The position numbers were made by a program, and so were the translations under genes. The notes beneath the pieces were generated by a model. It was not told the origin of the DNA. It did no database searches and worked only from the letters and a program-made list of their open reading frames with translations. From positions 320,001 to 384,000 of the forward strand of contig JAHQJS010000004.1 in NCBI GenBank assembly GCA_019057385.1: 64,000 nucleotides of DNA. Direction: 5' to 3'. Origin of the DNA: Candidatus Borrarchaeum weybense (GTDB taxonomy: Archaea; Asgardarchaeota; Sifarchaeia; Borrarchaeales; Borrarchaeaceae). This document shows, in pieces, positions 6,910 through 31,085 of this stretch (the first letter of the stretch is position 1; each line of letters opens with the position of its first letter).

Positions 6910-9900
6910 ATGTTTTTAAACGACGAATTTAACAAGATAAAACACACAATTCTAGAAAGTATTCCTAAAGACGCAAGTGTTTCTGATATTGAATTTGAGG
7001 GTCCTGAGATTGCTATTTATTCAAGAAATCCAAAAGTTTTGTTAAATAATGGCGATATCATAAAGGTACTTGCTAAACGTTTACGGAAACGGTTGGTTAT
7101 TCGATCTGACCCTGCATTACGAATGCCTCCGCAACAGGCTGAAGCAGAAATCAAAATGATAGTTCCAGAAGAAGCAGAAATAAGTTCCATTAACTTTGAT
7201 GACAATGTCGGAGAAGTTATTATTGAAGCAAAAAAGCCTGGATTAGTTATTGGCCGTAATGGAACTACACTCAAGGAAATCACACGTAAAATATTTTGGC
7301 GTCCTTCTGTTATACGAACTCCTCCTATTCAGTCCCGAATTGTTTTACAACTAAGACACGCTCTACAAAAAGACAGCGAGAAACGAAGAGGGATTTTAAA
7401 AACAATTGGTCAACGAATCCATAGATCAGTCATAATGCGCAACGGTTGGTTGCGTTTTACAGCATTGGGAGGCTTTAGAGAAGTTGGTAGAACATGTCTC
7501 TTTGTACAAACTGCAGAAAGTAATGTTTTAATTGATTGTGGTATAAATGTTGGTACTTCTAGCCAAGGTAATTCTTTTCCTCGATTAGACATGCCAGAAT
7601 TTGATCTTGATGAATTAGATGCCGTTATCATTACTCATGCTCACTTAGATCATTGTCTCCCGCCCGATACTCCTATTCGAATGGCGGATGGCCGTTGGAA
7701 ACCAATTGTTGATGTTGAACCTGGAGAGCAGGTAACCAGCTTCAATTGGGAAACTGGTGAATTTGAGCCAGCAAAGTGCACTGGAAAAACTGTAACAAAC
7801 GGCCATCAAGAAATATTAGAAATTATTACACCTTATCACCAACTCGTTGCTTCTCCTAATCATCGTTTTTTCACAATTCAAGAACTTGAAGTTCGTGAGG
7901 TTGAAGCTCAAGATTTGCAGGAAGGGATGCTTCTACCTATTCAGCGTCCTATAATGGTTGAAAAAACCTCACCTGTTAAATTGGTAACTGATATTCAATA
8001 TGAAGGATTAATCCCTCTCACTACTGATATAGGGGAATTCTTACGAGAACTTCGCTTAAAGCGACATCTCAAGCAAGCACAAGTAGCTAAAAGTGTTGGT
8101 GTTCATGTAAACACAATTTCGAAAATTGAGACTAATCCTACTTCTACAACTCTGCCTGTTATTCGCGCCATAACTGAGTTTTATAACATCGAATGGAAAA
8201 CTTTTGCTGAAAAATTTGAATTTCCTAGACTTCCTGAGACTCTCACTCCTGAACTTGCTCGATTAGTCGGGTACATTCAAGGTGATGGTCACAAATCTAA
8301 TGAATATTCCTTCCGCATTACTGAAATGGATCAAATGCTAATATTAAGTTATTCCAGATTAATAACTCAACTATTTCGTGTTAAACCTTCTGTTAGAGAG
8401 AGAAAAGATACACAGACACCGACATATACAATTTCAGTAAACAACGCGCAAATCCTTAGGTTCTTAGAAAGTAATTTCTCCACTATTTTCTCAAAGAGTA
8501 AAGACCTTGAAGTCCCTGAAATAATCCAAGATGCTCCACTATCGATAAAACAAGAATATCTCAAAGGATTGTTTGACGCCGAAGGAACAGTTGTAATTGG
8601 AATCAAATTCTGTAGTTACAGCCATAAACTTTTACGTCAAGTCCAGTTTCTCCTTTACCAGCTTGATATACCTTCCTCAGTACACCTTAAAGGCAATGTA
8701 ATACGTCTAGCTAGTCCCTATGCCCTTAAACGATTTTCCGAATTGGTAGGTTTCACCGCTCCAACGAAAAACAAGAAGTTAGAAAAGAGGCTTTCATCAT
8801 TCTCTGACGAAAGATTTGTTTATCCATCGTCACTTATACCTATTTCTTCAAAGGATCTTGAAACCATTCTACGAGAAATTGGAATACTTGGTAGGATACA
8901 TAACAGTCCTCGCATAACAGAACTTCCTATGGCAATTCTCGATTGGTATCGTCGCAAAAAAGGATATGTTACACGACCAACTGTTGAACAACTTTTAGAA
9001 GTTCTATTGGAACGTTATAATTCTATTGAACTCCTCAAAGGAACGCTAAAACATAATCTACTTACTGCCCGTCAACAACTCACGATCCCTCGATCAATAG
9101 TCGCTGAGGCAACTGGCCTATCTACAATGCAGATTCAATACCGCGAGGAAGGCAATTTATATGATTTTGCAACCGAAGAAATCGAAGAATTCCTAAAAAC
9201 ACAAATAGACAGAATCCAAGACAGCATTCGTGATATTGTCCAAAAGATTCATCATATTCTCACACTCAATGTCGAATGGCATCGCATAAAACGTATCAAT
9301 AGTTCTCCCAACACCAAACCTCTAATTGACATCGAAGTGCAACCCAACCGCAGTTTCGTCGCAAAAGGAATAGTTATCCATAACTGCGGCTTTGTTCCTT
9401 TTCTATATAAATATGGTTATCGAGGTCCCGTTTATTGTACCAAGGCTACTCGTAATTTAATGACCTTGTTGCAACTCGATTACCTAGATGTTGCTGAACG
9501 CGAGGGAAAACTCTCTCCATACAAGCAAAAAGATGTGAAAAGCGTTGTTCTCAATACTATCCCTCTTGATTACGGGGAAGTGACAGATATCAGCCCTGAC
9601 GTAAGATTGACTCTCCATAATGCAGGACATATACTTGGAAGTTCTATATCACATCTCCACATAGGAGACGGCCTATACAATGTCGCTTATACGGGCGATT
9701 TTAAATTTTCTAAATCAAGATTACTAGAGGCTGCCACATCACATTTTCCTAGGCTTGAAACCCTTATTTTAGAAAGTACTTATGGAAATGTAGATGATAA
9801 CTTGCCTTCTCGACGTGAATCTGAAAGACGATTGATTCATGCGATTAATAGAACCATTCAACAAAGAGGAAAGGTTCTAATACCTGTTCTAGCAGTAGGT

Positions 9901-15040: not shown

Positions 15041-15745
15041 CTAAAAATCATTATTAAAGTCTATTTTTGATGATATTTCGTAAGAATAGAGTACTCTTGA
15101 TATAGCAACATGAGCATCCAGTGATATTTTACTTATAGAAACTACTTCATCTGCAATCTCCAATGTTTTCTTTTCAAATTGACCATGTGGGAATCCACCT
15201 ACAATAATTGCCAGTGGTTTGATTTCAACTGCCTTTTTCATTAAATTGTTTAATTCAACCTCTTTGCCTGTTTTAGAGAATAAAATTGTATGTTTTGGCT
15301 TTATTTCATCATGAAGTTCTTTTAAAGTCATTTCATGAATAGTAAGTAAACTGGATCCTTTTGGAGGTACTTTCCCCATCATGAACAATTGACTCATTAA
15401 CCCCGAAAAGCGGACATAATTACGTGGGAGTCTTACATTGGGATCTACCTGGATAACAAGATCATTCAAAGTATGTATGAAGATTTTTATGTATCCTGAT
15501 TTACATAGCGGTGTGCCTAAAATTGATAGAAGTGAGATATGTACTATATCAGGGCGTCCTCTTTTCTCATATGCTTTTGGATTATCTATAAAAAACGAGT
15601 GAATAGATTTGTCAAAAACAATGGTTTCTGGGGATTTTTTCTGTTTTTTAGCATATCTTCGAAATTTTGCCAGATTTCTAAATTCGACGGGGATTGATTC
15701 CAGTGCGGATTCTGCTAAAATGAAGTATAAAATAGAGTCTTTCAT
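15041..15745 (-). CDS. nep1: Nep1/Emg1 rRNA pseudouridine N1-methyltransferase
   Basis: KRGRPDIVH, RLPRNYVRFSGLM, VGGFPHG. Confidence 0.93.
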   Translation of the reverse strand: MKDSILYFILAESALESIPVEFRNLAKFRRYAKKQKKSPETIVFDKSIHSFFIDNPKAYEKRGRPDIVHISLLSILGTPLCKSGYIKIFIHTLNDLVIQVDPNVRLPRNYVRFSGLMSQLFMMGKVPPKGSSLLTIHEMTLKELHDEIKPKHTILFSKTGKEVELNNLMKKAVEIKPLAIIVGGFPHGQFEKKTLEIADEVVSISKISLDAHVAISRVLYSYEISSKIDFNNDF

Positions 15746-16998: not shown

Positions 16999-17018
16999 AT
17001 TAGATTGCATTGAGTTAA

Positions 17019-17945
17019 TCAAAGAAGCAATGTTAGAATTGCCTTTTGTGCATGTAATCTGTTTTCCGCTTGATCCCACACAACTGAATTAGGTCCATCA
17101 ATCACCTCGTCAGTAATTTCTTGACCGCGATGTGCTGGAAGGCAATGCATTACAATGACATTTATTAGTGCATTGTTTAGTAATTCTTGATTTACTTGAA
17201 ATGGTGGAAAAACTTCCATTCTTTCCTCTGCTTCAGCCTCTTGCCCCATTGAAATAAAGGTATCAGTATAGACAACATCTGCATCAAGAACTGCGTCTTG
17301 AGGATCGTGAACTATCTGAACTTCAGAATCAAATATTCTTGCGTTGTCTTTTGCTAAATCAATAACATCTTCTAATGGTTCATAGTTTTCCGGACAGCCC
17401 ACTGATATATTGATGCCTAGTTTTGAGCATCCTATAAGTAAAGAATTACAGACATTATTTCCATCTCCAACATAGCTTATCTTCAAATTCTCAAAATTTT
17501 TCCTCTTCTCCTTAATAGTCAAAAGGTCAGCCAATATTTGACAGGGATGGAATAAATCACTTAGACCGTTTATAACTGGGACTTGTGAGAAATCTGCAAG
17601 ATCTAATAAGTCTTCATGTGAGTAAACACGTGCCATAATTCCATCTACATATCGGGCTAGTGTACGCGCAGTATCAGGGATAGTTTCTCCTCTACCAAGT
17701 TGCAAATCTTTTGCGCCTAAAAATAGGGCATAACCTCCCAATTGGCGCATAGCCACTTCAAAGGATACACGAGTTCTAGTACTTGATTTTTCAAAAATCA
17801 TAGCTAATGTTTTTCCATTTAGTATCTCAGACGACTCTCCACGAAGATACATCTTCTTAAGATCGCTCGCAATATCCAACATATAATGAATTTCTTCAAA
17901 TGAAAAATCTTGCAATGTAAAGAAATCCTGTCCTCGAATATCCAT
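17019..17945 (-). CDS. argF: Ornithine carbamoyltransferase
   Basis: SSTRTRVSFE, HPCQ, SMG, HCLP, QAENRLH. Confidence 0.96.
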   Translation of the reverse strand: MDIRGQDFFTLQDFSFEEIHYMLDIASDLKKMYLRGESSEILNGKTLAMIFEKSSTRTRVSFEVAMRQLGGYALFLGAKDLQLGRGETIPDTARTLARYVDGIMARVYSHEDLLDLADFSQVPVINGLSDLFHPCQILADLLTIKEKRKNFENLKISYVGDGNNVCNSLLIGCSKLGINISVGCPENYEPLEDVIDLAKDNARIFDSEVQIVHDPQDAVLDADVVYTDTFISMGQEAEAEERMEVFPPFQVNQELLNNALINVIVMHCLPAHRGQEITDEVIDGPNSVVWDQAENRLHAQKAILTLLL

Positions 17946-18010
17946 AAGGTCCTCCTCCTTTTTCTAAATAGGAGTTAACTAACTTAATTTAAGATCTAAT
18001 AATAATTATA

Positions 18011-18940
18011 TTATATAGCACTTTCTGGTACGATCTTTTCAGCAAACTTTTTAGGATAAAATGCATCTAGATCTTTGTATTCTTGACCGATTCCAATAAA
18101 TACAATGGGCTTTTTCGTAACATGAGCAATAGAAATAGCAGCCCCTCCTTTTGCATCAGCATCAACTTTAGTCAGTATTGAAGCATCAATACCTACAGCC
18201 TCATTGAATTCGCGAGCTTGTTCGACGGCATCATTACCAGCAAGACTGTCTCCTACAAAGACTGTAATCACATTCGCGTCTTCGATTCGTTTAAGAACAC
18301 GAACGATCTTTTCCATCTCTCCCATAAGGTTCTTATTGGTTTGCATTCTCCCAGCAGTATCAATTAGAACAATATCTATGTTTTTTGCAATTGCATGACT
18401 AACAGCATCAAAGGCAACAGCAGCAGAATCCGAGCCATATTTGTGTTTGATTACTTTAACTCCAAGTTTGTTTGCATGAATTTCTATTTGCTCTATGCTT
18501 CCTGCACGGAAAGTATCCGATGCTGCAAGGACTACAGAAAAACCCTTTTTTTGGAATAGACTAGTAAGCTTGGCTAAAGTTGTTGTTTTTCCTGTACCAT
18601 TAACTCCTAAAAATACAATCGCTAAAGGTTGCCCCTGTTCTTTGCCTTTTTTTGCTAACTCAAAAAGATCTATACCCTCTACTTTAAGGATTTCTAGAAT
18701 TGTATTTCTTAAGGCACTATAGACGAATTTCTTTGTGCTCTTAAGACGACCTACCTTCTCACCAGTCAACTGTTGTTTCATAAGTTCTCCAATTTCAGCT
18801 GCCACGGAAAATGCAACGTCGTTTTGTATTAATATTATTTTCAAAGATTCAAGAACATCCTCTAACTGGTCTTCACTCAATGTCTTCGATGATATTTTTT
18901 CTGTAAAACCCTGAAGACCACTTCTTAGTTTTTCAAACAT
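18011..18940 (-). CDS. ftsY: SRP receptor FtsY (first 38 codons apparently supplied by the island)
   Basis: GVNGTGKTTT, DTFRAG, DTAGR, TKVDADAKGG, GIGQ; start MFEKL at 18940. Confidence 0.95.
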   Translation of the reverse strand: MFEKLRSGLQGFTEKISSKTLSEDQLEDVLESLKIILIQNDVAFSVAAEIGELMKQQLTGEKVGRLKSTKKFVYSALRNTILEILKVEGIDLFELAKKGKEQGQPLAIVFLGVNGTGKTTTLAKLTSLFQKKGFSVVLAASDTFRAGSIEQIEIHANKLGVKVIKHKYGSDSAAVAFDAVSHAIAKNIDIVLIDTAGRMQTNKNLMGEMEKIVRVLKRIEDANVITVFVGDSLAGNDAVEQAREFNEAVGIDASILTKVDADAKGGAAISIAHVTKKPIVFIGIGQEYKDLDAFYPKKFAEKIVPESAI

Positions 18941-19263
18941 AGATGTTTTCTCTCCGAGCATATGAAGCATTAAGGATTGATTGATTGCTTGACGCAAGTT
19001 TGTGACATATCAATCAGGTTTTTTAATATACGTTTTGATTCCGAATTTGAAAACTCAATTTTATCGAATAATTATTCAAAGAACATTTTAACACGCATTC
19101 ATCTCTTGTTGAATTATAAAAGATGTTATATCTGATGAGGATGTCTTACCTATTTTATAGTATTCTTGAGCAATAGTATGAATATATGTCGAATAGCTTT
19201 CTTTTATAAAAAATGTGAAAAATGCCCTTTTTCTCTTATATCAGATAATAATTAAGAATAACG

Positions 19264-19304
19264 AAAGGAGTGAGATGATCAGCACAAAACCGATCATCTC
19301 CTTT
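19264..19304 (-). terminator. Hairpin closing guide RNA 1 (terminator or 3' processing signal)
   Basis: AAAGGAG-TGAGATGATC ... GATCATCTC-CTTT inverted repeat just downstream of spacer 1 on the minus strand. Confidence 0.55.
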
Positions 19305-19310
19305 TGGATG

Positions 19311-19470
19311 ATTTCAGCTGCGACAGAAAGCGCGACATCGTTTTCGTGGGTATGACATTTTTCGTCCCTTGCGAGTCATCCGTCCCCTTCGATGAGGCGT
19401 CGGACCTCTCAGGTTCAGTCTCATGCACAAGAACGTGTCCCTCATGTTTTATGAGGAACATACCGCCTTG
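19311..19470 (-). ncRNA. Putative guide RNA 1: scaffold (19346-19436 core) plus 35-nt ftsY-matching spacer (19311-19345)
   Basis: Scaffold repeated at 20452-20546; spacer 28/35 identical to ftsY 18792-18826; own TATA box (TTTATATA, 19498-19505). Confidence 0.8.
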
Positions 19471-19541
19471 CAACTCATATATTCGCTTACAAAGACCTAT
19501 ATAAACACCACTCTTCATAACAAGGACTCCCAGTTCCATAC

Positions 19542-20354
19542 TTACATGTCCTCTTTCAGGTCATCAAGATAAAGGTTGACCATTAATAAGAGATGGTTTT
19601 TCAAAGAAGAAAAACCATAGGTTAGTGCTTCGTTGATTTTATCAAGGTCATTGCATTTTCGAATAAAGGTATAAAGTGCAAAAGGAGAGTATTGGCGCAG
19701 TTCTATCTCTCTTTTTAACGCGTTGAAATCTATCTCTTCTGATTCTGCTACATGATAACGTGAAAATGCAGTCCATCTAAATTTTCGAGAAATCATTGCA
19801 GACCATCTATCATAATTTTGTAGTAAAGAAAGCAGAGGAAAGTCTTTTTCATCTATAGTATAATTATGATGGTTCTTTGCGAGCTGATAGACTTCGTCAT
19901 TAATTATATCAACATCAGTATAAATTTTGCTTGGATGTCGATCAGTGCTTACAAAATCATGCAGGAGCATTGCTATAATTAACTTTTCCTGCACATCTGA
20001 GAGTTTTGGAAGTTTCTTACGTATGTTAATCTTTCTCGAAATATAGAGGGGTTTTTTCTTGAATTCACTCACAGAAGTCCAAAAGATTTGTCCCACCCCC
20101 TCACATGTATAACTCCCGACACTATCAATAGCTAGTGCTTTTTCAAGTTTATGTTCTGGAACGATGAACTCAACATTACCAAACCATGCCCTAAAGGTCA
20201 TTGGAGCACGTCTTTGTCCTACCGTTAATTTTCCGAATACCCTGGGACGACCATTTATAGTCATCGCACCAACATCGGTAACTCCAAAATGTCTACGCCT
20301 TGAAACGATAGGAGTTTTTGTATAACCAATCAATTTAAAGTATTTTTGTGACAT
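19542..20354 (-). CDS. Cas5-like RAMP fused to HD nuclease domain
   Basis: N-terminal beta-rich RAMP ending in G-loop VGSYTCEGVGQI; LLHDF..NHH..YDRWSA and C-terminal SLKNH. Confidence 0.7.
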   Translation of the reverse strand: MSQKYFKLIGYTKTPIVSRRRHFGVTDVGAMTINGRPRVFGKLTVGQRRAPMTFRAWFGNVEFIVPEHKLEKALAIDSVGSYTCEGVGQIFWTSVSEFKKKPLYISRKINIRKKLPKLSDVQEKLIIAMLLHDFVSTDRHPSKIYTDVDIINDEVYQLAKNHHNYTIDEKDFPLLSLLQNYDRWSAMISRKFRWTAFSRYHVAESEEIDFNALKREIELRQYSPFALYTFIRKCNDLDKINEALTYGFSSLKNHLLLMVNLYLDDLKEDM

Positions 20355-20404
20355 TTATTCCCCTCATTTGAGGTTTTACCTCCTCTTTAAACAAAAGAGA
20401 GGAG

Positions 20405-20570
20405 ATATAAACCTTGCCAAAGTAAACACGTTTGCAACTGTTGTTTGTAAAGTGGGTATGACATTTATCGTCCCTTGCGAGTCATCCATCCCCAATAATC
20501 GAGGCGTCGGACCTCTAAGTTGGTTCAGTCTCATGCACAAGAACGTATCACTCACATCAGTAGGTGATAG
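20405..20570 (-). ncRNA. Putative guide RNA 2: scaffold (20452-20546 core) plus spacer matching the cas7 promoter
   Basis: Second scaffold copy; 20405-20451 aligns to 21454-21501 (42/47 identities, one gap); followed by a CTCCTCT/AGAGGAG hairpin. Confidence 0.8.
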
Positions 20571-20608
20571 ACCGTTATGAGATGAGAAAAAAAGTTGAGA
20601 TAAATATG

Positions 20609-21418
20609 TCACACAACCACCTTCTCACCCTGTCCACTCATAAGATTCAAAGAAGTTCTCCAACCCTCGATATTACTTAGAGTTAGTGGAGTTTCAGTGG
20701 TTTCTTCGATAATTTTATAATTTCCTTCACTATCCTCTCCGATTCTTCGAATAGTTTCAACCTTCTGAAGAGCAATATTAAGGATCTTGACGCAACCATA
20801 ACCACTTGCCCGTCCTGCTCCAAGAATTTCTACGTAGAGCATTGCCTCTATAAGAAACTTGATTTCACCATCAGTTAAGTTAGTCACATCAATGTGAAAG
20901 GAAAAAAATCCGCTGAAATAACTCTCACGAAAGTCTTGGATAGGAATACCATCATAGGCAAGAGCTATCCTATTTTCGCTAGCGATGTGGACATTTTGAA
21001 CAGGCACTTCAGTTGTGTATTCCTTATGTTTAATCGAGACAATAGGATCTGCAGCGACAACAATAGAGGACTTTTCGCGGAAGGTGCCAAAGATTGTTCG
21101 GAGAATACAGGGAGGATCACATGTACCAAGCGCATGAAACCCTTTCGGAAGAACACTTTTACCATCTTTAAGCGCTGTTTTCTCAGAACTGTGACAGACT
21201 TCAATGTTGCAGTCTTGAGCAAGCTCCATACAGGCATGTCTTAGCATTCCTCGGATACCTTTAATGTAATAAAACTTAGTATTGAATGTCTTTGAACTGT
21301 TTGTGTAAGGAAGTTTCCCTAACAAGAGCATGCTAGAATTTTTCTGAATCGAGGCATTGATAGGCTTTGCTATGGGTGTAAAGGCATGAATAACTATCTG
21401 TTTTTTGATTTTTCTCAT
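20609..21418 (-). CDS. Cas7-group RAMP (Csm3/Csf2-like backbone subunit)
   Basis: TPI near N-terminus, KGIRGMLRH, Cys cluster ..C..PCILRTIFG, ENRI, C-terminal G-loop LGAGRASGYG. Confidence 0.82.
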   Translation of the reverse strand: MRKIKKQIVIHAFTPIAKPINASIQKNSSMLLLGKLPYTNSSKTFNTKFYYIKGIRGMLRHACMELAQDCNIEVCHSSEKTALKDGKSVLPKGFHALGTCDPPCILRTIFGTFREKSSIVVAADPIVSIKHKEYTTEVPVQNVHIASENRIALAYDGIPIQDFRESYFSGFFSFHIDVTNLTDGEIKFLIEAMLYVEILGAGRASGYGCVKILNIALQKVETIRRIGEDSEGNYKIIEETTETPLTLSNIEGWRTSLNLMSGQGEKVVV

Positions 21419-21452
21419 GTTTCCAACCTCAGATATATTTAGTACAAGTACC

Positions 21453-21501
21453 TATATAAACCTTGCTCAAAATAAACACTTTTCCAACTTTTGTTAGTAA
21501 A
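21453..21501 (-). promoter_or_regulatory. cas7 promoter (TATA/BRE region); predicted target of guide 2
   Basis: TTTATATA at 21453-21460, ~35 bp upstream of the cas7 ATG; same ACCTATATAAAC context as the guide-1 promoter. Confidence 0.75.
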
Positions 21502-21764
21502 ATGGGGATTAAATTGACTTCCATTTTAGAAATAAAGCATTTTTAACAGTTTTTAGATGAAAAACCATCGAATATTTAGTGCCTGCTTTATAAATAACAA
21601 AGTCAAGCAACAATTTACATCATCATCTCTTTAAAAGAATAAACATATGATTTAACAAAATTAAGCGATTACGAGAATTCACAAGGAATACATTAATGGT
21701 GTCAACTAAACTAAAAAATGTTCTTAAAAGAATAATTGTACCATTGATGGTTGCTAATAAATCA

Positions 21765-24700
21765 TTAGGGCAAAAGATCCTTAACTATAACTGGAGGACC
21801 TTTTTTCTGTGGTGTATAAATTCCCTCCATGTGTTGAAACCTTTCAAACATTAGAAGAAGAGCTTCTTTATCTGGAGCATAAATAAAGGGGACGAATCGC
21901 TTCTTTTCTAGCAAAAAATCCTTGAGTTGTAGTGCGCACTGCCTTATAGCATCCTTTACTGTCATATATTCATCCAGATAGTATATCTCTTGATTAAGTA
22001 TATCACCAACCAGTCTCTCAACTTTGTAGTGCCCGTTCCACGTTAAATGATAGAATCGTTCACGCTCTAATGTTTTACGTATCTTAAAATCGGCTTTTGT
22101 AAATTTACCATATATACATGCTAAGATGAAGGTGAACCTGAATAGGGGAAGAAACATCTCTCGGAAGTCAACGACGGTGCCAAGAAAGGATCGCCGTGTT
22201 TTCTTAAAATGCAATATCAGTTCATCGGGCACCCATGAGAACCCTACTTCAGCGAGTGCTTTTCGACAGTAAAAATTAAGATGGCGATAGACGGCATTGA
22301 GTGCCGCACTAAAGGGAGTTCGCGCCTTTGCTTCACCCAGAAGCACCACTGTGGCAATATAGCGATCGAGGGTACGACTAATGATCTCAAAGTAACTGCC
22401 TTGCAGCAAATGCTTGGGAACCTCCCAGGCAACGCTTTCCACTACCCCTTCAAGACCGCGAAGGTTGTCAATATTGCCCCGCCAATAGAGAAAAGTGTAC
22501 GCCACGCGATCCAGCAGTTGGGATAAGAATTCCTGTGCCTCCGCAGAAGATAATATCCCCTCTTTTTCAAACCAGAGAATTGCATTGGCGAGCCCCATAT
22601 TTTTACCCATCACCAGCAGCCTCGCTAATAACGTGCCTCGTTCCGTCCCTCTGAGTTGCTGGGCGGTGTGTTTCAGTTCATCAGCTAATTGTTGTTTCTC
22701 TGGTGTCAGTGTATGCTGTGCAAAGAATCTGCCTTCGGGCGAATTAATATCAATGAGTTTCTTGCCATAGTTCTTACGAACTAGTTGCGAAACTTCTCCA
22801 CCCTCGATGATGATGTGACAGATAGCACCGATTAAATATCGATGTGTTGTTTTCCCGTCCTTTAGTGCATGAGCAAATCGTTTTTTCTTAATATCAAGCC
22901 GTTCACCGCACTTGACACGAATGGTTCGTTTTGGTCGTCGAATGTAAACCTTTGTTTTTTTAACCCGCGGGACATAATTTCCGGGCTTGCCTAAAAGCAA
23001 ATCCAATCCTTTTAGCATCAAACCTCGGTTGCCTGGTTTCACCACCAAGTCACCTTTCATGGTCAAATAATAGCGGGAATTGCATTCGGGACAGACTGTG
23101 TATTCATTATAGCAGGATGGCAATTCCACCGTACCGCCGGAGTAGCAGAAGTAGCACGGAGTATCATCGAGTGTTTCTTGTATGGCACTAATTGTGCGCT
23201 TTTTTAACTCCCGCGCTTTCTGATGGTATTCGCAGGCACCCATCTTTGGTGCGGCATAGGATTTCCTTTCTTGCCTTCCAATTTTTGTGTTATACTTTTG
23301 ATTCAACACACAGATATGTGCACGTTTCGATCTGCGACGATCCTTCATAGAATTTATCCGAAAGAAGCCACATGAACCACAGGTGAGCCGCAGATGTTCA
23401 GGAATACTCATATTCGCGTCTGCCACATAGATTTTAGGGCGACCTCGTAACTGCCCTCGAGAGATAAATTGGATTTTTCCTTGGATTCCTAACTTCTTTG
23501 CATGTTTCACTACCGTAGTATGGTGAACTGGTCGATTATACTGTTTACGAACCTCTGACGTAATTTGTGCGTAAGAGATGACCTTATATTGATTAATAAT
23601 GTTATAAATTGCTTCTTGAAGTCCCGGATATGGTATCGGTCTGTACTTTGGATACCTGCGTCTCCTTCTGCCTTTGTTCCCTCTTTCAACTTCAGGCTCT
23701 TTGTATTCAGGATTTAGTTTTGTGGTAAGTTTTTTGGCAACCCTTGCCGCCCTCGGGTCACTGCGCCCCAGATAGTCATAACTTGCTTCTGCGATCCACG
23801 ACGCCGTCTTTCTATGTGCTTCTGCATCACCCGGTCGTATGTTTACCCGAGTTGCAGCTTTTGTGACCGAAGAACCCTGACTGAGTAACCATACGAAAGA
23901 GGCATATTGCTGGGCGGTATATCGTGTGGTGTTGCTCACTTCATGTATGCTTCGACCGATTAGTGTAATTACGTGCCGGGAGAATTCCCGTTCTGAGGAG
24001 CAATGATGTGTGGCAAAAAACTTCTTGATCCTTAAGGCGGTTTTAATCGGCAGTAAAAATTGGCTGGCCCAGCGTCCTTTGGCTGTTGCACTAAACTTTC
24101 CACCATTTCTTTTGATAAAACCTTCCTTGATAAGTGTGTGAAGGATTCCCTCTCTTTTTTTCTTCGGTTCATCCTGCTTAGGTCGAGCTAACAGTTTCTC
24201 TCTTAGTTGTTGTGTAAAGTCTTTCAACTGGTCGTGGGTGAATGGTGTCAACAGTAAGCGAAGCTCTCCGTTTTTGACCCCGCGTGTAGTGGTGTTCTTC
24301 TTGACCCACATGAAGAATTTTCTCGTTACACGTTTCAAGTCGAATGGGAGAGAGCCTTCGTGCGTTTCGCGCAATAAGGACAGTAAATGAAGTTCGTTAT
24401 TGAGCCGACAAAGCTCCTCTTCCTGGTTCATGAGTGCGTTATTCATTAGTTCGGACCAATTCTGTAGCAATGCTTTGTGTTGATGCCAGAAGTAATGTCT
24501 TTCAAGTTTGTGAAGTAATTGATTCGTGGATGCCGAGCCTCTAGCTATCAGGGTGAGTACAATATCTGCCAAAGAAGAACGTGCCTGGCTTGTTATACGA
24601 TGTTCTTTGACTATCAATTGTCCCTCGACGATTTGTATCTCCTTTTGCTTCAAAATTTCTTGATCGTCCCCCACGAAGATCAGATCAGCATAGCCCACCC

Positions 24701-25775
24701 GATGATGGCGCGGTCGTGCCGCCCTGCCACTCAATTGTATCAACAGGTGAGGGTTGAACATCCCGGCATCGGCAATTATCACCCGTTTGATCGGAAAGTC
24801 CACCCCCTCTCCGTATTGAATCGTTGACAGAAAAACCTGAAATTCACCCTTCTTAAGCCGTCTCATAGCTTCTTGTTGTTCCTCTTTACTGAGCCCGGCG
24901 TGACTGTAGCCCACGGTGAGATCGAGTCCACAACTCTTAAGAAAGGACTGCAACTCTATAGCTCGTTGTTCAACCTGATTTCGTGTGTAGCAAAAGATGT
25001 GCACGATTTTAGTCCCCTGATCATCACCATACGAGCGTTGTTCAAAGGTCTTTTTGATCAAGCGAGCGAACAGAAAGCGTTTTTTTCGTTCAATCTGCTC
25101 TATGGTGCTGCCTGAAACCCCACAAGATGACACAATAAGCTTCGACTGCCGTTCGTTGGTATGGATAAGTTGAGCGTCAAGCCAACTTACCAGTTCCTCG
25201 GCATTCCCCAGAGTAGCCGAGAGATAGATGATATGCGGGCGAGGGCGTAACCAAGATCTTGCATTGACGATTGCAGTTTCTAGGCGAGCACCCCGCCCTT
25301 TGTTGCCCAGATTGTGCAGTTCATCGACCACAATCAATCCTATCTTGTCTAAAAACGGATACTCGAAATGCTTAACTAGCAGTCCATTGAAGGATTCGTA
25401 GGTGCTGATGAGGATATCCGCCGTTTCAAGCTCTTCAGGAGACGAACGGTCATCTCCGCTGACTTTGAGGATGGTACAGGCGTCGTGATACCACTCTTTG
25501 AACTTGTCATACATCTGATCGATCAGCCGTTTGGTCGGCTCAAGAATTACACAGCGCATCCCTTTTCCAAGCACGCGGGTAGACACTATTTGGGATATCA
25601 AGGTTTTTCCCGAAGCGGTAGGAGTGTACAACACCTTGTCCTGCCTTTGTTTACCAGAAAAACATGCCTCCCATTGAAAGTCGTAGAGGGCGTTAATGTC
25701 AGCCTGTTCCAACCGTTGACGTATGAATTCGTAGTTTAACCCTCTTTTCGTCATTGTAATGAACTGGCCTCTCAA
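21765..25775 (-). CDS. Ski2/Hel308-like SF2 helicase - HTH/Zn-finger linker - divergent Cas1 integrase fusion
   Basis: Helicase: PTASGKT, DELH, SAT, HAGL, QLSGRAAR. Cas1 (~21765-22950): LRGLEG, PFSAALNAVY, ILH, DFREMF. Start may be ATG 25754; TATA box at ~25810. Confidence 0.82.
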   Translation of the reverse strand: MRGQFITMTKRGLNYEFIRQRLEQADINALYDFQWEACFSGKQRQDKVLYTPTASGKTLISQIVSTRVLGKGMRCVILEPTKRLIDQMYDKFKEWYHDACTILKVSGDDRSSPEELETADILISTYESFNGLLVKHFEYPFLDKIGLIVVDELHNLGNKGRGARLETAIVNARSWLRPRPHIIYLSATLGNAEELVSWLDAQLIHTNERQSKLIVSSCGVSGSTIEQIERKKRFLFARLIKKTFEQRSYGDDQGTKIVHIFCYTRNQVEQRAIELQSFLKSCGLDLTVGYSHAGLSKEEQQEAMRRLKKGEFQVFLSTIQYGEGVDFPIKRVIIADAGMFNPHLLIQLSGRAARPRHHRVGYADLIFVGDDQEILKQKEIQIVEGQLIVKEHRITSQARSSLADIVLTLIARGSASTNQLLHKLERHYFWHQHKALLQNWSELMNNALMNQEEELCRLNNELHLLSLLRETHEGSLPFDLKRVTRKFFMWVKKNTTTRGVKNGELRLLLTPFTHDQLKDFTQQLREKLLARPKQDEPKKKREGILHTLIKEGFIKRNGGKFSATAKGRWASQFLLPIKTALRIKKFFATHHCSSEREFSRHVITLIGRSIHEVSNTTRYTAQQYASFVWLLSQGSSVTKAATRVNIRPGDAEAHRKTASWIAEASYDYLGRSDPRAARVAKKLTTKLNPEYKEPEVERGNKGRRRRRYPKYRPIPYPGLQEAIYNIINQYKVISYAQITSEVRKQYNRPVHHTTVVKHAKKLGIQGKIQFISRGQLRGRPKIYVADANMSIPEHLRLTCGSCGFFRINSMKDRRRSKRAHICVLNQKYNTKIGRQERKSYAAPKMGACEYHQKARELKKRTISAIQETLDDTPCYFCYSGGTVELPSCYNEYTVCPECNSRYYLTMKGDLVVKPGNRGLMLKGLDLLLGKPGNYVPRVKKTKVYIRRPKRTIRVKCGERLDIKKKRFAHALKDGKTTHRYLIGAICHIIIEGGEVSQLVRKNYGKKLIDINSPEGRFFAQHTLTPEKQQLADELKHTAQQLRGTERGTLLARLLVMGKNMGLANAILWFEKEGILSSAEAQEFLSQLLDRVAYTFLYWRGNIDNLRGLEGVVESVAWEVPKHLLQGSYFEIISRTLDRYIATVVLLGEAKARTPFSAALNAVYRHLNFYCRKALAEVGFSWVPDELILHFKKTRRSFLGTVVDFREMFLPLFRFTFILACIYGKFTKADFKIRKTLERERFYHLTWNGHYKVERLVGDILNQEIYYLDEYMTVKDAIRQCALQLKDFLLEKKRFVPFIYAPDKEALLLMFERFQHMEGIYTPQKKGPPVIVKDLLP

Positions 25776-26228
25776 TTCCTGCCTCTCATTTACAATGGTT
25801 GCAAATTTCTATATAAAGAGGGGAACTTTTGGATCGCTGGCTCGAAAAACTATGTCACTTGAACTCTTCACAAACCAAAGCGTTTTCCAAATCAAATGCT
25901 ATTAGACACAAATTAGAGATCGTTACTTTCATTAATTGAATCTACACGAACTCTCACTAAAAACAAAATTGTAGCATTTATGAAAGAATTTTCAAATGAT
26001 AGCATCATTTGATAACGGGAACGTAATCTAATTTCGGGACGGTAAAATTATCGCTAAAACTAGGAATATGAATCTTTGAAATCATATAGGAGAGGAACTT
26101 CAACTCACTAGAGAGGCATAAGGATATGTGAAATCATAATTAAACAAATATGTCCAGCAAAAAATTACTAAGCTTTATTAGTTGCCAAGCTAATATCTAG
26201 ACGATTAATATGGACGCGGTTCGTAAAA

Positions 26229-28469
26229 ATGCCAACAGATGACCATTTTAAAAGAGGAATTGAATTCTTCAATCGAAAACAATACAAGAAGGCCATTAAA
26301 GCATTCAAGAAGGCTTTAACGTCAGACCAAGAACACTATGTGATATGGTACAACATGGGATTAGCTTTCTCGAAACTAGATAAATTCACTAATGCCATTT
26401 ATTGTTATAAAAAAGCCGTGAAAATTAACCCTGAGTTTGCAGAAGCGTGGGGCAACATGGGTGCTGCGTATCATGAGTTAGATAAGCTTAACAAAGCCAT
26501 CGAGTGCTTCCAAAGGGCATTGGAAATCAACCCTGAGTTAATAGACACATTAAACAATATGGCGGCAGTTTACATAAAATTAAATGAGTATAATAAAACT
26601 GTCGAATGTTATCAAAAAGTTTTGGAAATTGCCCCTATGAATAAAATCGCTTTGCATAATTTAGCTTGGGCTTATGGAAACTTAAATAATTATGAAAAAG
26701 CAGTTGAATATTACCAAAAGGCAATAAAAAACGAACCTGAATATGTATTCGCATGGAATAACTTAGGAGCGGTTTATGGAAAACTCGGTGAGTATAAAAA
26801 AGCCATTGAATGTTATGAAAAGGTCCTTAAACTTGACCCCATAAATGTAAAGGCATGGAAAGGCATAGAAATTGCTCACAGAAAATTAAACGAATTTGCT
26901 GAGGCAATTGAGTGTTGCCAAAGAGTTATAGAACTCAATTCTAGCGATATAGACACATGGAATAATATGGGCGTTTCCTACGGAGAATTGGGCGAATATA
27001 ATAAAGCTATCGCATGTTTTGAAGAAATATTAAGAATTGAACCCAATAACGCAAAAGCGCTGAATAACGCAGGAATTGCCTACGAAGGATTAAATGAGTT
27101 TAAAAATGCGCTTAACTATTATAAGAAGGCTTTAGAAATTGATCCTAATTATGTAGATGCATGGTACAACATGGGCAACGCCTATAAAAAGTTAGACGAA
27201 CACATGAAAGCAATTGATTGCTACAAGAAAGTCGTGGCAATTGACTCAGAGCATACAAAAGCATGGAATAATTTGGGCAATACCTATGAAAAATTAGACC
27301 TACATATGCCTGCGATCGAATGCTATGAGAAAGCGTTGAAAATTAACCCTGAGTTTGTTAATGCTTGGTATAACATAGGTAATGTCTATAGAAACTTAGA
27401 CGAAGACATGAAGGCGATTGAATGTTATAAGAAAGCTGTGGAAATCGACTCGAAGCACTCAAAAGCATGGGGAAATATGGGTGCCATTTACACGCTTTTA
27501 GGTGAACACATGTCTGCAATCGAGTGCTATAAGAATGCTGTAGAAGCTAGTCCTGAATATGCTGGCGCGTGGTATAACATGGGTGTGACCTATGTAGAAG
27601 TAGGCAAATACATGTCTGCAATCGAATGCTATAAGAAAGCATTGGAAATAAATCCCGATTATATAGATGCATGGACGGGGATGGGGATCGCGTATGCAAC
27701 GTCTGATAATTATAATAATGCCTTTGAGTCCTTTCAAAACGCATTGGACATCAATTCTGAAGATGTTGGTACATGGTACAATTTAGGTGTGACTTACAAG
27801 AAATTAGGAGAGCGTAACAAGGCACATGATTGTTTTAAAAAGGCTCTGGAGATCAATCCTAAAGATATATTGTCAGCATACAATATGGGGGCGATTCAAG
27901 CAGAACTAAATGCAGAAAAGAAGATCTCAGAATTAAAGAACGACGTTGATTTTCTGAAAGGTCAAGAACTAGAGAATAAGATAAGTGAACTTGTCGAGAA
28001 ATCGTATAGTTTTCAATGCAAAAGAGAATATCGTGTCCAAAAATTGGAGGACGAAGAAGTCGAAAAATTCATTGAAAGAGGTTGTTATAGAGAAAGTACT
28101 AAATCAGTTGAATTAGATGTAATAGCTATAAAGGAAGAAGCCAAAACTGGGAAAAAACGCCCTGCCATGTTACTTTGTGAGTGTAAAGCCAAAAATACGC
28201 ATACAAATGAAAAACAAATCAAATGTTTCCTTTTAAAGACAGAAATTTGGAAGAGAAAATTTACTGAATTTTATGAATCCATGCCTGATTATCTCGCCCC
28301 AGAGTTCATATTATGGTATGTTAGCTTAAAAGGATTTACCAGAAACGCTGAAACGCTAATAAATCAAAATAAGATTGAGCCCTTTGATCTTGAAAAATTA
28401 AACAAGGAATTGAAGAAAGTAAATATTCTAACAATTCCTAAGAGATTTATTGCAGAACAAGAAAATTAG
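26229..28469 (+). CDS. TPR-repeat protein with C-terminal PD-(D/E)xK (Mrr/restriction endonuclease-like) domain
   Basis: ~16 TPRs (AWYNMG..Y..AIECY.KAL.I.P); ELDVIA..CECK..VSLKGFT. Confidence 0.8.
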   Translation: MPTDDHFKRGIEFFNRKQYKKAIKAFKKALTSDQEHYVIWYNMGLAFSKLDKFTNAIYCYKKAVKINPEFAEAWGNMGAAYHELDKLNKAIECFQRALEINPELIDTLNNMAAVYIKLNEYNKTVECYQKVLEIAPMNKIALHNLAWAYGNLNNYEKAVEYYQKAIKNEPEYVFAWNNLGAVYGKLGEYKKAIECYEKVLKLDPINVKAWKGIEIAHRKLNEFAEAIECCQRVIELNSSDIDTWNNMGVSYGELGEYNKAIACFEEILRIEPNNAKALNNAGIAYEGLNEFKNALNYYKKALEIDPNYVDAWYNMGNAYKKLDEHMKAIDCYKKVVAIDSEHTKAWNNLGNTYEKLDLHMPAIECYEKALKINPEFVNAWYNIGNVYRNLDEDMKAIECYKKAVEIDSKHSKAWGNMGAIYTLLGEHMSAIECYKNAVEASPEYAGAWYNMGVTYVEVGKYMSAIECYKKALEINPDYIDAWTGMGIAYATSDNYNNAFESFQNALDINSEDVGTWYNLGVTYKKLGERNKAHDCFKKALEINPKDILSAYNMGAIQAELNAEKKISELKNDVDFLKGQELENKISELVEKSYSFQCKREYRVQKLEDEEVEKFIERGCYRESTKSVELDVIAIKEEAKTGKKRPAMLLCECKAKNTHTNEKQIKCFLLKTEIWKRKFTEFYESMPDYLAPEFILWYVSLKGFTRNAETLINQNKIEPFDLEKLNKELKKVNILTIPKRFIAEQEN

Positions 28470-28640
28470 GCTTAAAAGATCCTTCTAAACTTTCGACATG
28501 ACGTAATTGAACTAATAAAAATAAATAGCATAAAATGTGATAGATATGGAAAAAGTAGAAGCGTTTTCATGGTATTTTGTTAAAAATAAATGGCCTGATT
28601 TAATTAACCGTTTCCATATTTTTCCCATAGGACTTTTAGG

Positions 28641-29207
28641 TTGGTTATCAGAATAAAAACTACATATTATCCATCTCTTAATGTTCAACAAATTAACTTT
28701 GTCCAAACAATCCTTATAAGATGGTGGAAAGAGGAAATAAGTGCAAAAGGAAAAAGAGACTTTTTCTGGAGGAAATGGATACTTGATCCTAAGATGACTA
28801 CCGTCATTTTGGAGGATTTTTCGTTTCCTCGTGATTTTGGTATATTTTGTACTGAAACAGCCCTGCGAAAAACACGCGCTGAAACTGTAGAAATTCATTT
28901 TAGACCATTTTTCAGGAGGTTTCATAGTTTTCAAGAAGTTAAAGCTGCAGATACAAAAGAATTAAGAAAAGTCCTATACCCCCTAGGTCGTGTCTCCCAG
29001 AATGTACGAGACCTTAAACAACGGGCTACAATAATAATAAACGAATTTAATTCGGAAGTCCCATGTACTAAAGAATACATAAGACGTCTAATGAAAACCT
29101 ATACACGAAAAATCTTACTGGAACACAGTTTCGAACATGGAGATGCAATAAACAGTACTTTGGTGCCTTTGCCACAATTCCTCCATCAGCTAATTCTAAG
29201 AGATTAA
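28641..29207 (+). pseudogene. Truncated HhH-GPD DNA glycosylase (MutY/MIG-like)
   Basis: KRDFFWR, ETALRKTRAETV, PLG, EVPCTKE; similarity ends before the HhH motif and FeS cluster. Confidence 0.6.
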
Positions 29208-29281
29208 GAGGATACAACATTTAAACCTTTGTGTGAGACCTTTTTCGTCTACCGCAAGTCAATGACCTCATTATAAAATAG

Positions 29282-29407
29282 TTATACTAGAAAAAGAAGA
29301 ATTAATTGTAGTTCCCAGAGAACATCATCAATTTGATCTTCGCTTAAAGTCTTAGTGGATACCTTGTCAGCGAATCCTGTGAGACTCTTTTTTAACTTTT
29401 CAAACAT
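29282..29407 (-). pseudogene. Stranded original 5' end of ftsY (41 codons)
   Basis: MFEKLKKSLTGFADKVSTKTLSEDQIDDVLWELQLILLFLV*; 23/38 aa identical to the FtsY N-terminus; directly downstream of pfdA. Confidence 0.9.
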
Positions 29408-29469
29408 CTTAATTTCTCTCTATGAAGGTCACTTAAACAGTAATTGTTCAGAAAAAAGTAATATTGATG

Positions 29470-29895
29470 CTATTTTTGTTGCATCTTATTGTAAGTTTCT
29501 TGTACAGTAGCCCGAAGTTCTTCTATTCTCTGGAGAGTGGTTCCCAACTGGTTTTGGAGTGTTGTGGAAATTCCTCGTAGTTCTTGTAATCGTTCAGCAA
29601 GTTTTTCTTGAGCGTTCTCTATACTCGTTTCAATAACTACATCACTACCTATCCCTAGAATAACCTTTTGTACGTTTGCAAGTGTTGCAAAAACAAATGA
29701 ATTCGATCCAATAGGTAAAAGGACCTCTTGACCTTCTTCTGCTTTAGTGATTCCATCAAGTGTGACACCTGTAATTGTAATCTGATTAATTTGAGCTTCA
29801 ACAGCTTCGACATTAGTTCTTAATACATCTGCATTAGCTTGTTGATGATTGAGTTCGTGAACCATCTGTTCAATCTTTTTTTGTTCTTCAGCCAT
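29470..29895 (-). CDS. pfdA: Prefoldin subunit alpha
   Basis: Coiled coils flanking EVLLPIGSNSFV..VILGIGSDVVIE. Confidence 0.92.
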   Translation of the reverse strand: MAEEQKKIEQMVHELNHQQANADVLRTNVEAVEAQINQITITGVTLDGITKAEEGQEVLLPIGSNSFVFATLANVQKVILGIGSDVVIETSIENAQEKLAERLQELRGISTTLQNQLGTTLQRIEELRATVQETYNKMQQK

Positions 29896-29921
29896 TCTTT
29901 ATGCCTCCCTTGGCAAATTAT

Positions 29922-30158
29922 TTATATTCGTGATAATTCAGAAGTAAGGCTCTTCAGTACAGGATCGGTAATATCTTCATCTTGAATTTGTGAAATTTCA
30001 GTTATTTTTATGAATTTTCTTGGAACTTTGTGTTTACTCCCTATAAGGGATAAAACGTTTTCAATTGCATGGGTTTCTTTTAGGGCTTTGATCTCTTTGG
30101 CGAATGGGATCTTTTTACTCTTTGCTCTATAGACGCCCTTAATCCGAAATACTGACAA
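29922..30158 (-). CDS. rpl18a: 50S ribosomal protein L18Ae (LX/eL20)
   Basis: FRIKG..FAKEIKA..AIE..S.IGSKHKVPRKFIKI; probable TTG start. Confidence 0.88.
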   Translation of the reverse strand: MSVFRIKGVYRAKSKKIPFAKEIKALKETHAIENVLSLIGSKHKVPRKFIKITEISQIQDEDITDPVLKSLTSELSRI

Positions 30159-30404
30159 TAAAAACACCTCTATTTTCAGTGAAACCTTTTGTGCACATCT
30201 TAACATATTATCTTTTAACCTTTTACATTTGGGTTGAGAATTTTTGCTTTGTAAAAAAACTCTTGCTGTGAAAATTGGTTTTTAAATTGCACAATGAAAA
30301 GCTTAATAATTTTTATCCTAGCAAGGTCATTCATCTTGCAAAGACTTCGTTCTGAGTGATATTTATCTGGCGAGAGTCCTTTCTGAGAGTAAAATGGATT
30401 AACA

Positions 30405-31085
30405 GTGTACCTGGTGAACTGTGTGGTTATTGTTCAGAATAACTTTAATGGAATCGCCTCAGTCGGCATAATCTCACTGGCTACTGATAGTTATGTATTG
30501 GTTCCAAGAAACCTTCCAAAAAGAGTAGTCAATAAGCTACATGAGGTATTTGCTGCGCCAATTATCAAAACTTCAATTTATCAATCGCATCTAATTGGAA
30601 TATTAGCCGCTGGTAATAAATTTGGTCTATTAACTCATTTTCTTTCTGATGATGATGAGATTGAATATCTTAAGAAGGAAATTGGTATCCCTGTTGAAAG
30701 AATGAAAAGTAAACTAACTGTCGGAAATTGCATTCTTGCTAATGACAAAGGCGCAATTGCTGCGGATGAATTTGGTAAAGAAGACATTAAGCAAATCACT
30801 GATATTCTCAATGTAGAAGTTTTGCAAGGAAAGATCGTCAATTCATCTTTAATCGGATCACTTGGAGCAGCAAGTAATGAAGGCGCTATGGTGCACCCAT
30901 TAGCTACCGAAAAGGAATTAGAATGGATTAGCGAAGGCTTGAAAGTACATTCTGATATTGGGACCGTTAACAGAGGTGTTCCATATGTCTCAACAGGAAT
31001 CTTAGTTAATTCACAGGGGTGCGTTACAGGCGAAGAGACTACAGGTCCTGAATTAGTAAGAATCTCACAAACATTCGCACTTTAA
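30405..31085 (+). CDS. eif6: Translation initiation factor 6 (inverted relative to neighbours)
   Basis: GNCILANDKGA, GAMVHP, GTVNRGVPYV, TTGPELVRI; start may be GTG ~30423. Confidence 0.93.
   Translation: MYLVNCVVIVQNNFNGIASVGIISLATDSYVLVPRNLPKRVVNKLHEVFAAPIIKTSIYQSHLIGILAAGNKFGLLTHFLSDDDEIEYLKKEIGIPVERMKSKLTVGNCILANDKGAIAADEFGKEDIKQITDILNVEVLQGKIVNSSLIGSLGAASNEGAMVHPLATEKELEWISEGLKVHSDIGTVNRGVPYVSTGILVNSQGCVTGEETTGPELVRISQTFAL

Follow-up and report, generated by a model that had tools for sequence, protein, structure and literature searches.

The closest described relatives of the locus considered here are the ARAMP systems, array-less derivatives of type III CRISPR-Cas found in Asgard archaea, which are usually accompanied by a distinct Cas1 and whose mechanism is regarded as enigmatic (PMC8730458; PMC12669027). 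According to these two reviews, written by the family's authors, the ARAMP and HRAMP families (Asgard archaea and Haloarchaea, respectively) go back to Makarova et al. 2020, CRISPR J. Here we describe an island of ~10.5 kb in a 64,000-nucleotide stretch of Candidatus Borrarchaeum weybense DNA (contig JAHQJS010000004.1, positions 320,001 to 384,000; hereafter the window, to which plain coordinates refer). The island lies between the body of ftsY and pfdA and encodes a helicase–Cas1 fusion, a Cas7-like protein and a RAMP protein fused to an HD domain (RAMP-HD), together with repeated scaffolds that end in variable tails. On balance, and with some reserve, we favour the view that it is a member of a mobile, array-less CRISPR-derivative family of Asgard archaea (ARAMP-type) that is addressed by RNA and follows the cycle set out below.

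By gene content the module belongs to the already named ARAMP family, and an earlier model-generated reading of this DNA (the first-pass annotation) had noted that array-less Cas1/Cas5/Cas7 modules were known from Asgard archaea. In both cases the host is an Asgard archaeon, the Cas7 and Cas5-like RAMPs are highly diverged and nearest to type III, a nuclease is attached, the locus contains a distinct Cas1 homologue and a connection with mobile elements is suspected. Both also lack a CRISPR array, in place of which the island has 125-nt scaffold-plus-tail units. The two reviews (PMC8730458; PMC12669027) describe no RNA component, target rule or empty sites, whereas the island has a predicted RNA component, a target rule and empty sites in congeners. 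No guide RNA, target rule or empty site of an ARAMP-type locus was found in the literature covered, which did not extend to the primary 2020 description.

Other systems share part of this architecture. CRISPR-associated transposons (CASTs; types I-F, I-B, I-D and V-K, with homing spacers) also combine a nuclease-poor CRISPR effector with an element-carried guide that matches the element's own attachment site. They differ in that TnsA/B/C and TniQ were not returned by Pfam, NCBIfam and PADLOC scans of the island's main open reading frames (ORFs), and in that the island inserts 0–8 nt from the 5′ edge of its target rather than ~50–80 bp beyond the PAM-distal end. The island moreover has neither inverted-repeat ends nor 5-bp duplications, its predicted guides are single long-scaffold RNAs rather than array-derived crRNAs, and a portion of the target gene is replaced by the element, which brings along a diverged version of the target. 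Casposons likewise place a Cas1-fold protein on a mobile element, and the casposase 6opm is among the Foldseek matches to the island's Cas1 part; in contrast, no PolB domain, terminal inverted repeats or 14–15-bp target duplication were seen in the island, where Cas1 is fused to a helicase and stands beside RAMP genes and predicted guide RNAs. From type III CRISPR-Cas itself the island differs in having only the HD domain of Cas10, fused to a RAMP, with no Palm/cyclase large subunit, array or Cas6.

The ftsY island and its empty sites

The genome that holds the island (G000) is a 4.18-Mb metagenome assembly with an estimated contamination of 7%, and was compared with three congeneric genomes (G001, G002 and G004; C-numbers below denote contigs). 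The island junctions are nevertheless spanned by long contigs of a public sequencing run and recur in a second occurrence from another sample (L068, described below). In all three congeners pfdA and ftsY are contiguous and uninterrupted, as the first-pass annotation had anticipated for empty sites, and the island (18792/18827–29293) is a true insertion. Amongst the DNA contigs of public sequencing runs compared with the window, no joint corresponding to an empty allele across the island was seen.

All the features bordering the island are on the minus strand. To its right lies pfdA, encoding prefoldin alpha (29470–29895; Pfam Prefoldin 2.3e-19), which adjoins ftsY in G004, G002 and G001. To its left is the host ftsY body (18011–18791), encoding an SRP54-type GTPase (Pfam SRP54 2.3e-71) and ~90% identical to G004 and G002. 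A five-way alignment was used to place the junction at ftsY: the host sequence reads ...CTT|GAAAACGATG..., and homology on the pfdA side of the window ends exactly at the bar, at 29294. Stranded beside pfdA is a 114-nt host fragment from the 5′ end of ftsY (29294–29407, the right island junction being 29293/29294) which, by translation and alignment, comprises codons 1–38 followed by an early stop. This 40-codon fragment, reading MFEKLKKS from 29407, duplicates the start of FtsY and is 92.7% identical to G004, the same level as the remaining host flank.

The 5′ end of the working gene is of a different kind. Its first ~149–150 nt are 56–74% identical to the congeners, against ~90% for the remaining gene body. 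Because host homology stops at 29294 and the working 5′ end is diverged, both the upstream region and the first ~149 nt of the working ftsY come from the island. Most of this lies in 18827–19271 (upstream region and replacement 5′ end, with ATG at 18940 and codons 1–38), a segment diverged from the congeners and common to the L068 element. It is followed at 18792–18826 by S*, a diverged copy, within the working ftsY, of the sequence S matched by guide A (see below), with two changes in its first 11 nt that are found in no empty allele. The earlier claim of an island splitting ftsY therefore holds as regards the insertion but not the split, which is formal only: the gene is intact, with its true start at the ATG just mentioned. 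The diverged target copy that the element carries into the occupied allele was not part of the first-pass annotation. A Campbell-type single crossover was rejected, the stranded fragment ending at +114 and the working copy being element-like to about +149.

Scaffolds and the sites matched by their tails

Each of the two RAMP genes is followed by a ~125-nt scaffold that includes a 5′ hairpin with compensatory changes. The first-pass annotation gave a length of ~95 nt, which falls short, but had both copies in the right place; a third, partial copy at 29199–29279 can now be added. Copies A (19346–19470) and B (20452–20580) are both on the minus strand and were delimited by repeat comparison and covariation; copy A has its own TATA box at about 19498–19505. 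It ends in a spacer-like tail of 35 nt (19311–19345), after which comes a probable terminator (19272–19301), a hairpin followed by a T-rich run that was read off the sequence and has equivalents in sister A-type guides.

As had been proposed, one of the variable tails matches the insertion site. The tail of scaffold A agrees with ftsY 18792–18826 at 28/35 positions, from the insertion point onward, and the match begins at the exact base at which the sequence of the congeners is interrupted. When both strands of the genome (~8.4 million positions) were scanned in ungapped 34-nt comparisons, ftsY (27/34) was the sole non-self site scoring at least 26. Over its first 11 nt the tail is identical to the empty alleles of G004 and G002, whereas the resident S* differs at two of them.

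The same rule is followed by three further full-length copies in G000, in each of which one tail matches the element's own insertion site, and in loci with a mapped empty site the insertion lies 0–8 nt from the 5′ edge of the matched sequence. The 6.9-kb element at C3:91587-98503 is absent from G004 and G002 and has its right junction 1 nt before S; the tail of its guide A matches the G004 empty allele at 32/35 positions but its own allele at only 27/35, and the interrupted PRC-barrel-like gene receives its promoter and first codons from the element. The 10.6-kb element at C5:117988-128548, absent from G004, has a junction at the edge of S; at its left junction the host flank agrees, from the first bases on, with the tail of the element's first guide. 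At C4:424013, host homology resumes 8 nt inside the tail-matched sequence. Across G000 as a whole, 5 of ~13 tails other than those of type B have their best genome-wide match no more than 1.9 kb downstream on the same strand.

Small copies of 2.4–2.6 kb, which consist of cas7, RAMP-HD and a guide only and lack helicase–Cas1, are also present in some genomes and absent from others. One such copy, G004:C95, is inserted at the equivalent of G000 C5:164150 with its tail target 6–8 nt from the junction; its tail matches the empty allele at 30/38 positions against 26/37 for its own allele, and the final 13 codons of the host gene are substituted by a version that the element carries. A second (G002:C6) is inserted at G000 C6:557713/557726, and its scaffold directly adjoins host DNA. 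In G004:C21, where a single junction was mapped, the scaffold adjoins host DNA that continues as G000 C4:702604.

An independent occurrence at ftsY comes from L068, a contig from another sample, in which the order is pfdA, a stranded ftsY fragment, genes for leucine-rich repeat (LRR) and tetratricopeptide repeat (TPR)-LRR proteins, helicase–Cas1, cas7, RAMP-HD, guide A and ftsY. The core of the L068 element is ~92% identical to that of the window, against ~78–83% for the host flanks; in a finer comparison the pfdA flank is 78% and the ftsY/OTCase flank 75–88% identical. The stranded fragment in L068 is that of its own host (G001-like), its junction lies 3 nt from that of the window, the sequence inside the junction is unrelated and the cargo differs. 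Because the S* of L068 carries the changes that separate the window S* from all empty alleles, S* travels with the element. Furthermore, the tail and S* of L068 differ from those of the window at the same three positions (GCAGCT in the window, GCGAAT in L068). The pair gives the impression of related elements having inserted twice at one address, the alternative being later turnover of the cargo.

Tails run in the sense of the genes that they match (ftsY, the PRC-barrel gene and 16S rDNA). Because they share that sense, they cannot pair with the RNAs of these genes, which points to DNA as the target; for tail A, the likely partner would be the template strand of ftsY.

Several other guides and tails deserve mention. 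Of three guides of L055 (G004:C9:1-9000; at 3017, 2751 and 1418), one has a tail that agrees with the 16S rRNA gene at 33/36 positions in the rRNA sense, and the tails of the two others converge on the 5′ end of an HDAC-like gene (G000 C5:351022-351146), where they match opposite strands at a spacing of ~50 nt. None of these targets adjoins the element. In the region of G000 C5:332705 the 16S rRNA gene is apparently interrupted, ~100 nt past the tail-matched stretch, by unrelated sequence that may be an intron or an insertion. At G000 C4:903446-904158 there is an extra 208-nt scaffold unit adjoining the host flank, and the orthologous locus in G004 (C118:17299-17840) keeps guide A but lacks everything from cas5-HD (the RAMP-HD gene) through helicase–Cas1; from this comparison it follows that solo guides occur, as do gains and losses of single scaffold units. 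One tail (GTGTTTTACGTCTACGTA...) is kept in G000 C4:903914-903947, in Borrarchaeum yapensis and in a Sifarchaeum marinoarchaea assembly (L077, L094), and a search of G000 found no target for it.

The scaffold repeat occurs ~22 times in G000, mostly after genes for Cas7-like and RAMP-HD proteins. Alignment of 22 copies gives a five-helix consensus in which 97% of cells pair, against at most 55% in controls with the partners slid by 1–3 columns. In the 5′ hairpin (helix 1), 7/9 pairs have changes on both sides, and several conserved pairs of the scaffold are G-U, compatible only with a transcript of the gene strand. Folding of single sequences gave no energy signal (z about 0), so the support for this structure comes through covariation and not through folding energy. 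Rfam returned no family for 17500–30500 at E values up to 1. That the repeats encode a small protein was rejected: copies differ by 1- and 3-nt indels, tblastn matches shift frame and the two small ORFs have no conserved frame. The A copies of the window's sub-family are preceded, ~40 nt upstream, by a TTTATATA box and have a hairpin and T-run after their tails; in relatives, up to three scaffold-plus-tail units stand in succession. These comparisons support the scaffolds as structured RNAs, each of which is probably transcribed as a unit with its variable tail.

The 3′ segment of scaffold B (20402–20451, minus strand) consists of 34 nt and the TATA-like box that precedes cas5-HD. It matches a stretch directly upstream of the BRE and TATA box of cas7 (21454–21501, minus strand) at 42/48 positions (E 1e-4; 29/34 ungapped). 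The same is true wherever a copy stands between cas7 and RAMP-HD: the tail matches just upstream of the cas7 TATA box at 28–33 of 34 positions, and the sequence concerned differs among three sub-families. The first-pass annotation took this tail to be directed at the element's own promoter. The match is borne out, but since the matched stretch extends into the TATA-like box ahead of RAMP-HD, self-regulation by a guide and a duplicated promoter are both possible. Self-regulating guides are known elsewhere (tracr-L of Cas9; CreR/CreA; PMC8730458, bioRxiv 10.1101/2023.03.03.530964) and resemble tail B in partly matching their own cas-operon promoter; the difference is that the 48 nt of tail B also contain the TATA box of the next gene.

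The Cas proteins and possible modes of insertion

The identities first proposed for the three proteins stand up to closer analysis. The largest, of 1336 amino acids (21765–25775, minus strand), consists of a Hel308/Ski2-like superfamily 2 helicase (residues ~20–430) fused to a Cas1-fold domain (~950–1300), with Pfam matches to DEAD, Helicase_C and Cas_Cas1 (31.9 bits; cut-off 22.3) and NCBIfam matches to Hel308 and cas1. Folding of the C-terminal 461 residues with six relatives gave a poor model (pLDDT 61), for which all of the top 50 Foldseek matches are nonetheless Cas1 or casposase (best E 3.7e-9; 6opm at E 4e-8). The domain has invariant E, H and D residues with Cas1-like spacing. A word-limited homologue search with the Cas1 region returned four close relatives only, and no related locus was confirmed when the whole protein was searched against the genome contigs. 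The long helicase–Cas1 frame is kept in 6 of about 10 modules, in one of which it is apparently split.

The Cas7-like RAMP (269 amino acids; 20609–21418, minus strand) is Csm3-like (Pfam RAMPs 4e-6; PADLOC Csm3 3.3e-7). The 270-amino-acid RAMP-HD protein (19542–20354, minus strand) has no family match and was identified by structure comparison: a model built with AlphaFold2 from 30 relatives (pLDDT 84.7) has two domains, of which residues 1–108 form a RAMP domain of Cas5/Csm4/Cmr3/Cas6/Csf type (RAMP chains at Z 5.5–7.5 in VIA-align) and residues 119–270 resemble the HD domain of Cas10/Csm1 (Z 8.6 and 7.9). H132, D133, H140, H162, H163 and H254 are invariant. Every relative used here is an unnamed protein of an Asgard record, and the names on the records that hold RAMP-HD homologues and scaffold copies are Borrarchaeum, Borrarchaeota, Promethearchaeota, Sifarchaeum, Heimdallarchaeota and Thorarchaeota. 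PDB searches with the sequences of RAMP-HD and the Cas1 part, as single sequences and as profiles, gave no Cas match. A Cas7 that is Csm3-like and an HD domain of Cas10 type make the effector look like type III and not like the Cascade-like complex suggested earlier. Amongst the ORFs scanned with Pfam, NCBIfam and PADLOC there was no Cas2, Cas6, Cas8, full Cas10 (the HD domain only), Tns protein, PolB or tyrosine/serine recombinase, and no short regular repeats of a classical CRISPR array were seen in 17000–31000, all in agreement with the first-pass annotation.

In the cycle that we propose, each element would make at least one structured RNA of ~125 nt with a variable tail of ~35 nt at its end; if class 1 effectors are a guide, RAMP-HD would hold the end of the scaffold and copies of Cas7 would line the tail. 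The tail of one RNA per element would pair with the chromosomal S of an unoccupied allele, the DNA would be broken or strand-transferred at the 5′ edge of S (0–8 nt) and the element would be placed there. The element would also supply a substitute for the severed gene end, in this case a promoter and the first ~149 nt of ftsY including the diverged S*, such that the essential gene still worked and the occupied allele was no longer a good match for the guide. The helicase–Cas1 fusion would most likely be the enzyme that joins the DNA, with small copies that lack it being moved in trans, and RNA B, matching the element's own cas7 promoter, would probably feed back on expression. RNA-addressed insertion or homing is well supported by the observations above. 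The assembly of RNA with protein, its pairing with DNA and the identities of cutter and joiner are steps that we infer, and a joining role for Cas1 is suggested by its fold and by its retention in the majority of modules. That helicase–Cas1 acts as a programmable integrase, with a minimal type III-derived RAMP complex and a long-scaffold guide marking the site and Cas1 joining kilobases of DNA at the edge of the RNA–DNA hybrid, is a narrower proposal that we put forward tentatively and regard as somewhat doubtful.

A number of observations weigh against the proposed cycle. No terminal inverted repeats join the ends of the island; regular target duplications were not found, there being overlaps of 7–8 bp at two empty sites, an 11-nt gap at one and neither at another; and alignment of the right ends of the window island, the C5 island and a relic upstream of purA revealed no conserved end. 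The small copies without helicase–Cas1 are polymorphic. Spacer–target identity is 74–91%, and some guides match distant genes (16S rDNA and the HDAC-like gene). The expectation that the variable segment would always match the flanking gene is borne out by the four full-length copies in G000 but not in other Borrarchaeum/Sifarchaeum metagenome-assembled genomes, where a significant match within ±4 kb was found for only 4 tails among 36 scaffold copies; not all copies thus have the internal homing-spacer layout. The guide RNAs are predicted transcripts, a catalytic role for the invariant Cas1 residues is suggested by their spacing, and the scheme gives no account of the joint origin of a spacer and the matching replacement gene end. 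Three findings that the first-pass annotation had named beforehand as telling against it (scaffolds or tails at odds with the sites in homologous loci, a domain without the Cas1 fold, and a split ftsY in relatives lacking the cas genes) were each looked for, and none overturned it.

Some of these points would also fit RNA-guided homing that involves no integrase, in which a complex of Cas7, RAMP-HD and RNA cuts the empty S in the manner of TnpB/IscB or a homing endonuclease and host recombination copies the element across; helicase–Cas1 may then do other work, such as adding scaffold–tail units or processing DNA ends. Such a scheme would be in keeping with an HD nuclease within the effector, the diverged S* of occupied alleles, Cas1-less copies that vary between genomes, host-homologous sequence on both sides of the ftsY island, and ends at which no conserved sequence, inverted repeat or target duplication was found. 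It also accords with the terminal scaffolds that adjoin host DNA in G004:C21, G002:C6 and C4:903446, where the flank itself would be the guide, as it is for the omega RNAs of TnpB/IscB (IS200/IS605, IS607). The likeness to those elements extends to the structured scaffold at the element end, the protected occupied site and an insertion that parts the target from its 5′ context, a logic of selfish retention or homing. In the window, however, the tail is internal and the flank is not the guide; many ARAMP-type guides are internal with their own terminators, the effector is a multi-subunit RAMP complex with an HD domain rather than a RuvC single-protein nuclease (none being found in the Pfam and NCBIfam scans), and a Cas1–helicase takes the place of TnpA. 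Copying from a common occupied allele predicts none of the differences between L068 and the window in right end, cargo and junction, each with its own host fragment, nor could the first insertion at a new gene arise by homing, and the long helicase–Cas1 frame has been kept in most modules. We consider homing without an integrase unlikely.

The tails might alternatively be records rather than addresses, the site being set by proteins or by chance and pieces of flank reaching the scaffold by joining, imprecise excision or nested insertions, with scaffold RNAs that serve another purpose or none. The covariation of spacer and S* between the window and L068 could be read in this way, as could the finding that the stretch of host-like sequence behind the scaffold is not constant: it measures 35 nt in the window and ~45 and ~85 nt in G004 loci, and has no limit where scaffold and flank adjoin. 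Yet internal tails have their own terminators and are held at ~35 nt, the fit of tails to empty alleles equals or exceeds their fit to the occupied copy beside them, and one ftsY site has been used in two host lineages; the tail of G004:C95, moreover, matches a site at the far end of its element and in the opposite orientation, which simple flank capture would not be expected to produce. We think this reading improbable. Still less probable, in our opinion, is a regulator of host genes or a defence system, CRISPRi-like or type III-like, whose presence and absence reflect ordinary gain and loss of islands. The match of tail B to the cas7 promoter in all loci that bear it, varying by sub-family, would suit regulation, as would tails matching 16S rDNA and the 5′ region of the HDAC-like gene far from the element, and the effector is related to type III. 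Neither the coincidence of junction and matched-sequence edge in four full-length loci nor the element-borne replacement gene ends would be explained, however, and no tail was found to match a virus or plasmid, although no systematic search was made.

Since 2020, ARAMP loci have stood as relatives of CRISPR with neither an array nor a known guide. A conserved structured RNA with a variable tail, a rule by which the tail names the site and matched empty sites give them an RNA component and a testable function. If the guide sets the site, this would be the fourth independent union of RNA guidance with DNA mobility and the first with Cas1 and a type III-like effector, which would be relevant to the origin of CRISPR adaptation, to selfish elements whose guide-resistant replacement lets them target essential genes safely, and to compact programmable insertion tools. 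Were helicase–Cas1 indeed a programmable integrase, it would represent RNA-guided insertion unrelated to Tn7-type CASTs, IS110 bridge recombinases and TnpB, and a living link between Cas1 transposons and CRISPR adaptation.

Accessory genes, relics and repeats

Divergent from helicase–Cas1 in the window is a gene for a TPR-repeat protein (26229–28469, plus strand; Pfam TPR), and genes for TPR-LRR and LRR proteins hold the equivalent place in sister elements (the C5 element and L068). TPR or TPR-LRR genes lie just upstream of helicase–Cas1 at L029 15160-16125 and at L068 7676-8260 and 8939-9874 as well as in the window, being divergent in the window and in 2/3 of the sister genes; the C3 element has no such gene. 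The gene may be a conserved accessory of full-length elements. Next to it is a cargo ORF (28641–29207, plus strand) encoding an HhH-GPD/MutY-like fragment (Pfam HhH-GPD 4e-4; TIGR mutY 1.4e-8; PADLOC type II nicking endonuclease 6e-8), which was not found in the congeners.

Copy C, the partial scaffold-like sequence at 29199–29279 (minus strand), is accompanied by 45 nt and is a paralogue of the relic upstream of purA, which alone resembled it in the right-end alignment. It is 85% identical to this relic, which lies just 5′ of purA at G000 C3:20289-20365 and is conserved at 84–92% in G001, G002 and G004. The relic may be what a lost element left behind, or a promoter to which such an element gave rise. 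Finally, L028 contains two sequences of ~320 and ~350 nt (15119-15437, equivalent to G000 C3:99118-99437, and 6933-7286) that recur at 80–98% identity on dozens of contigs in all four congeners and look like miniature repeat elements.

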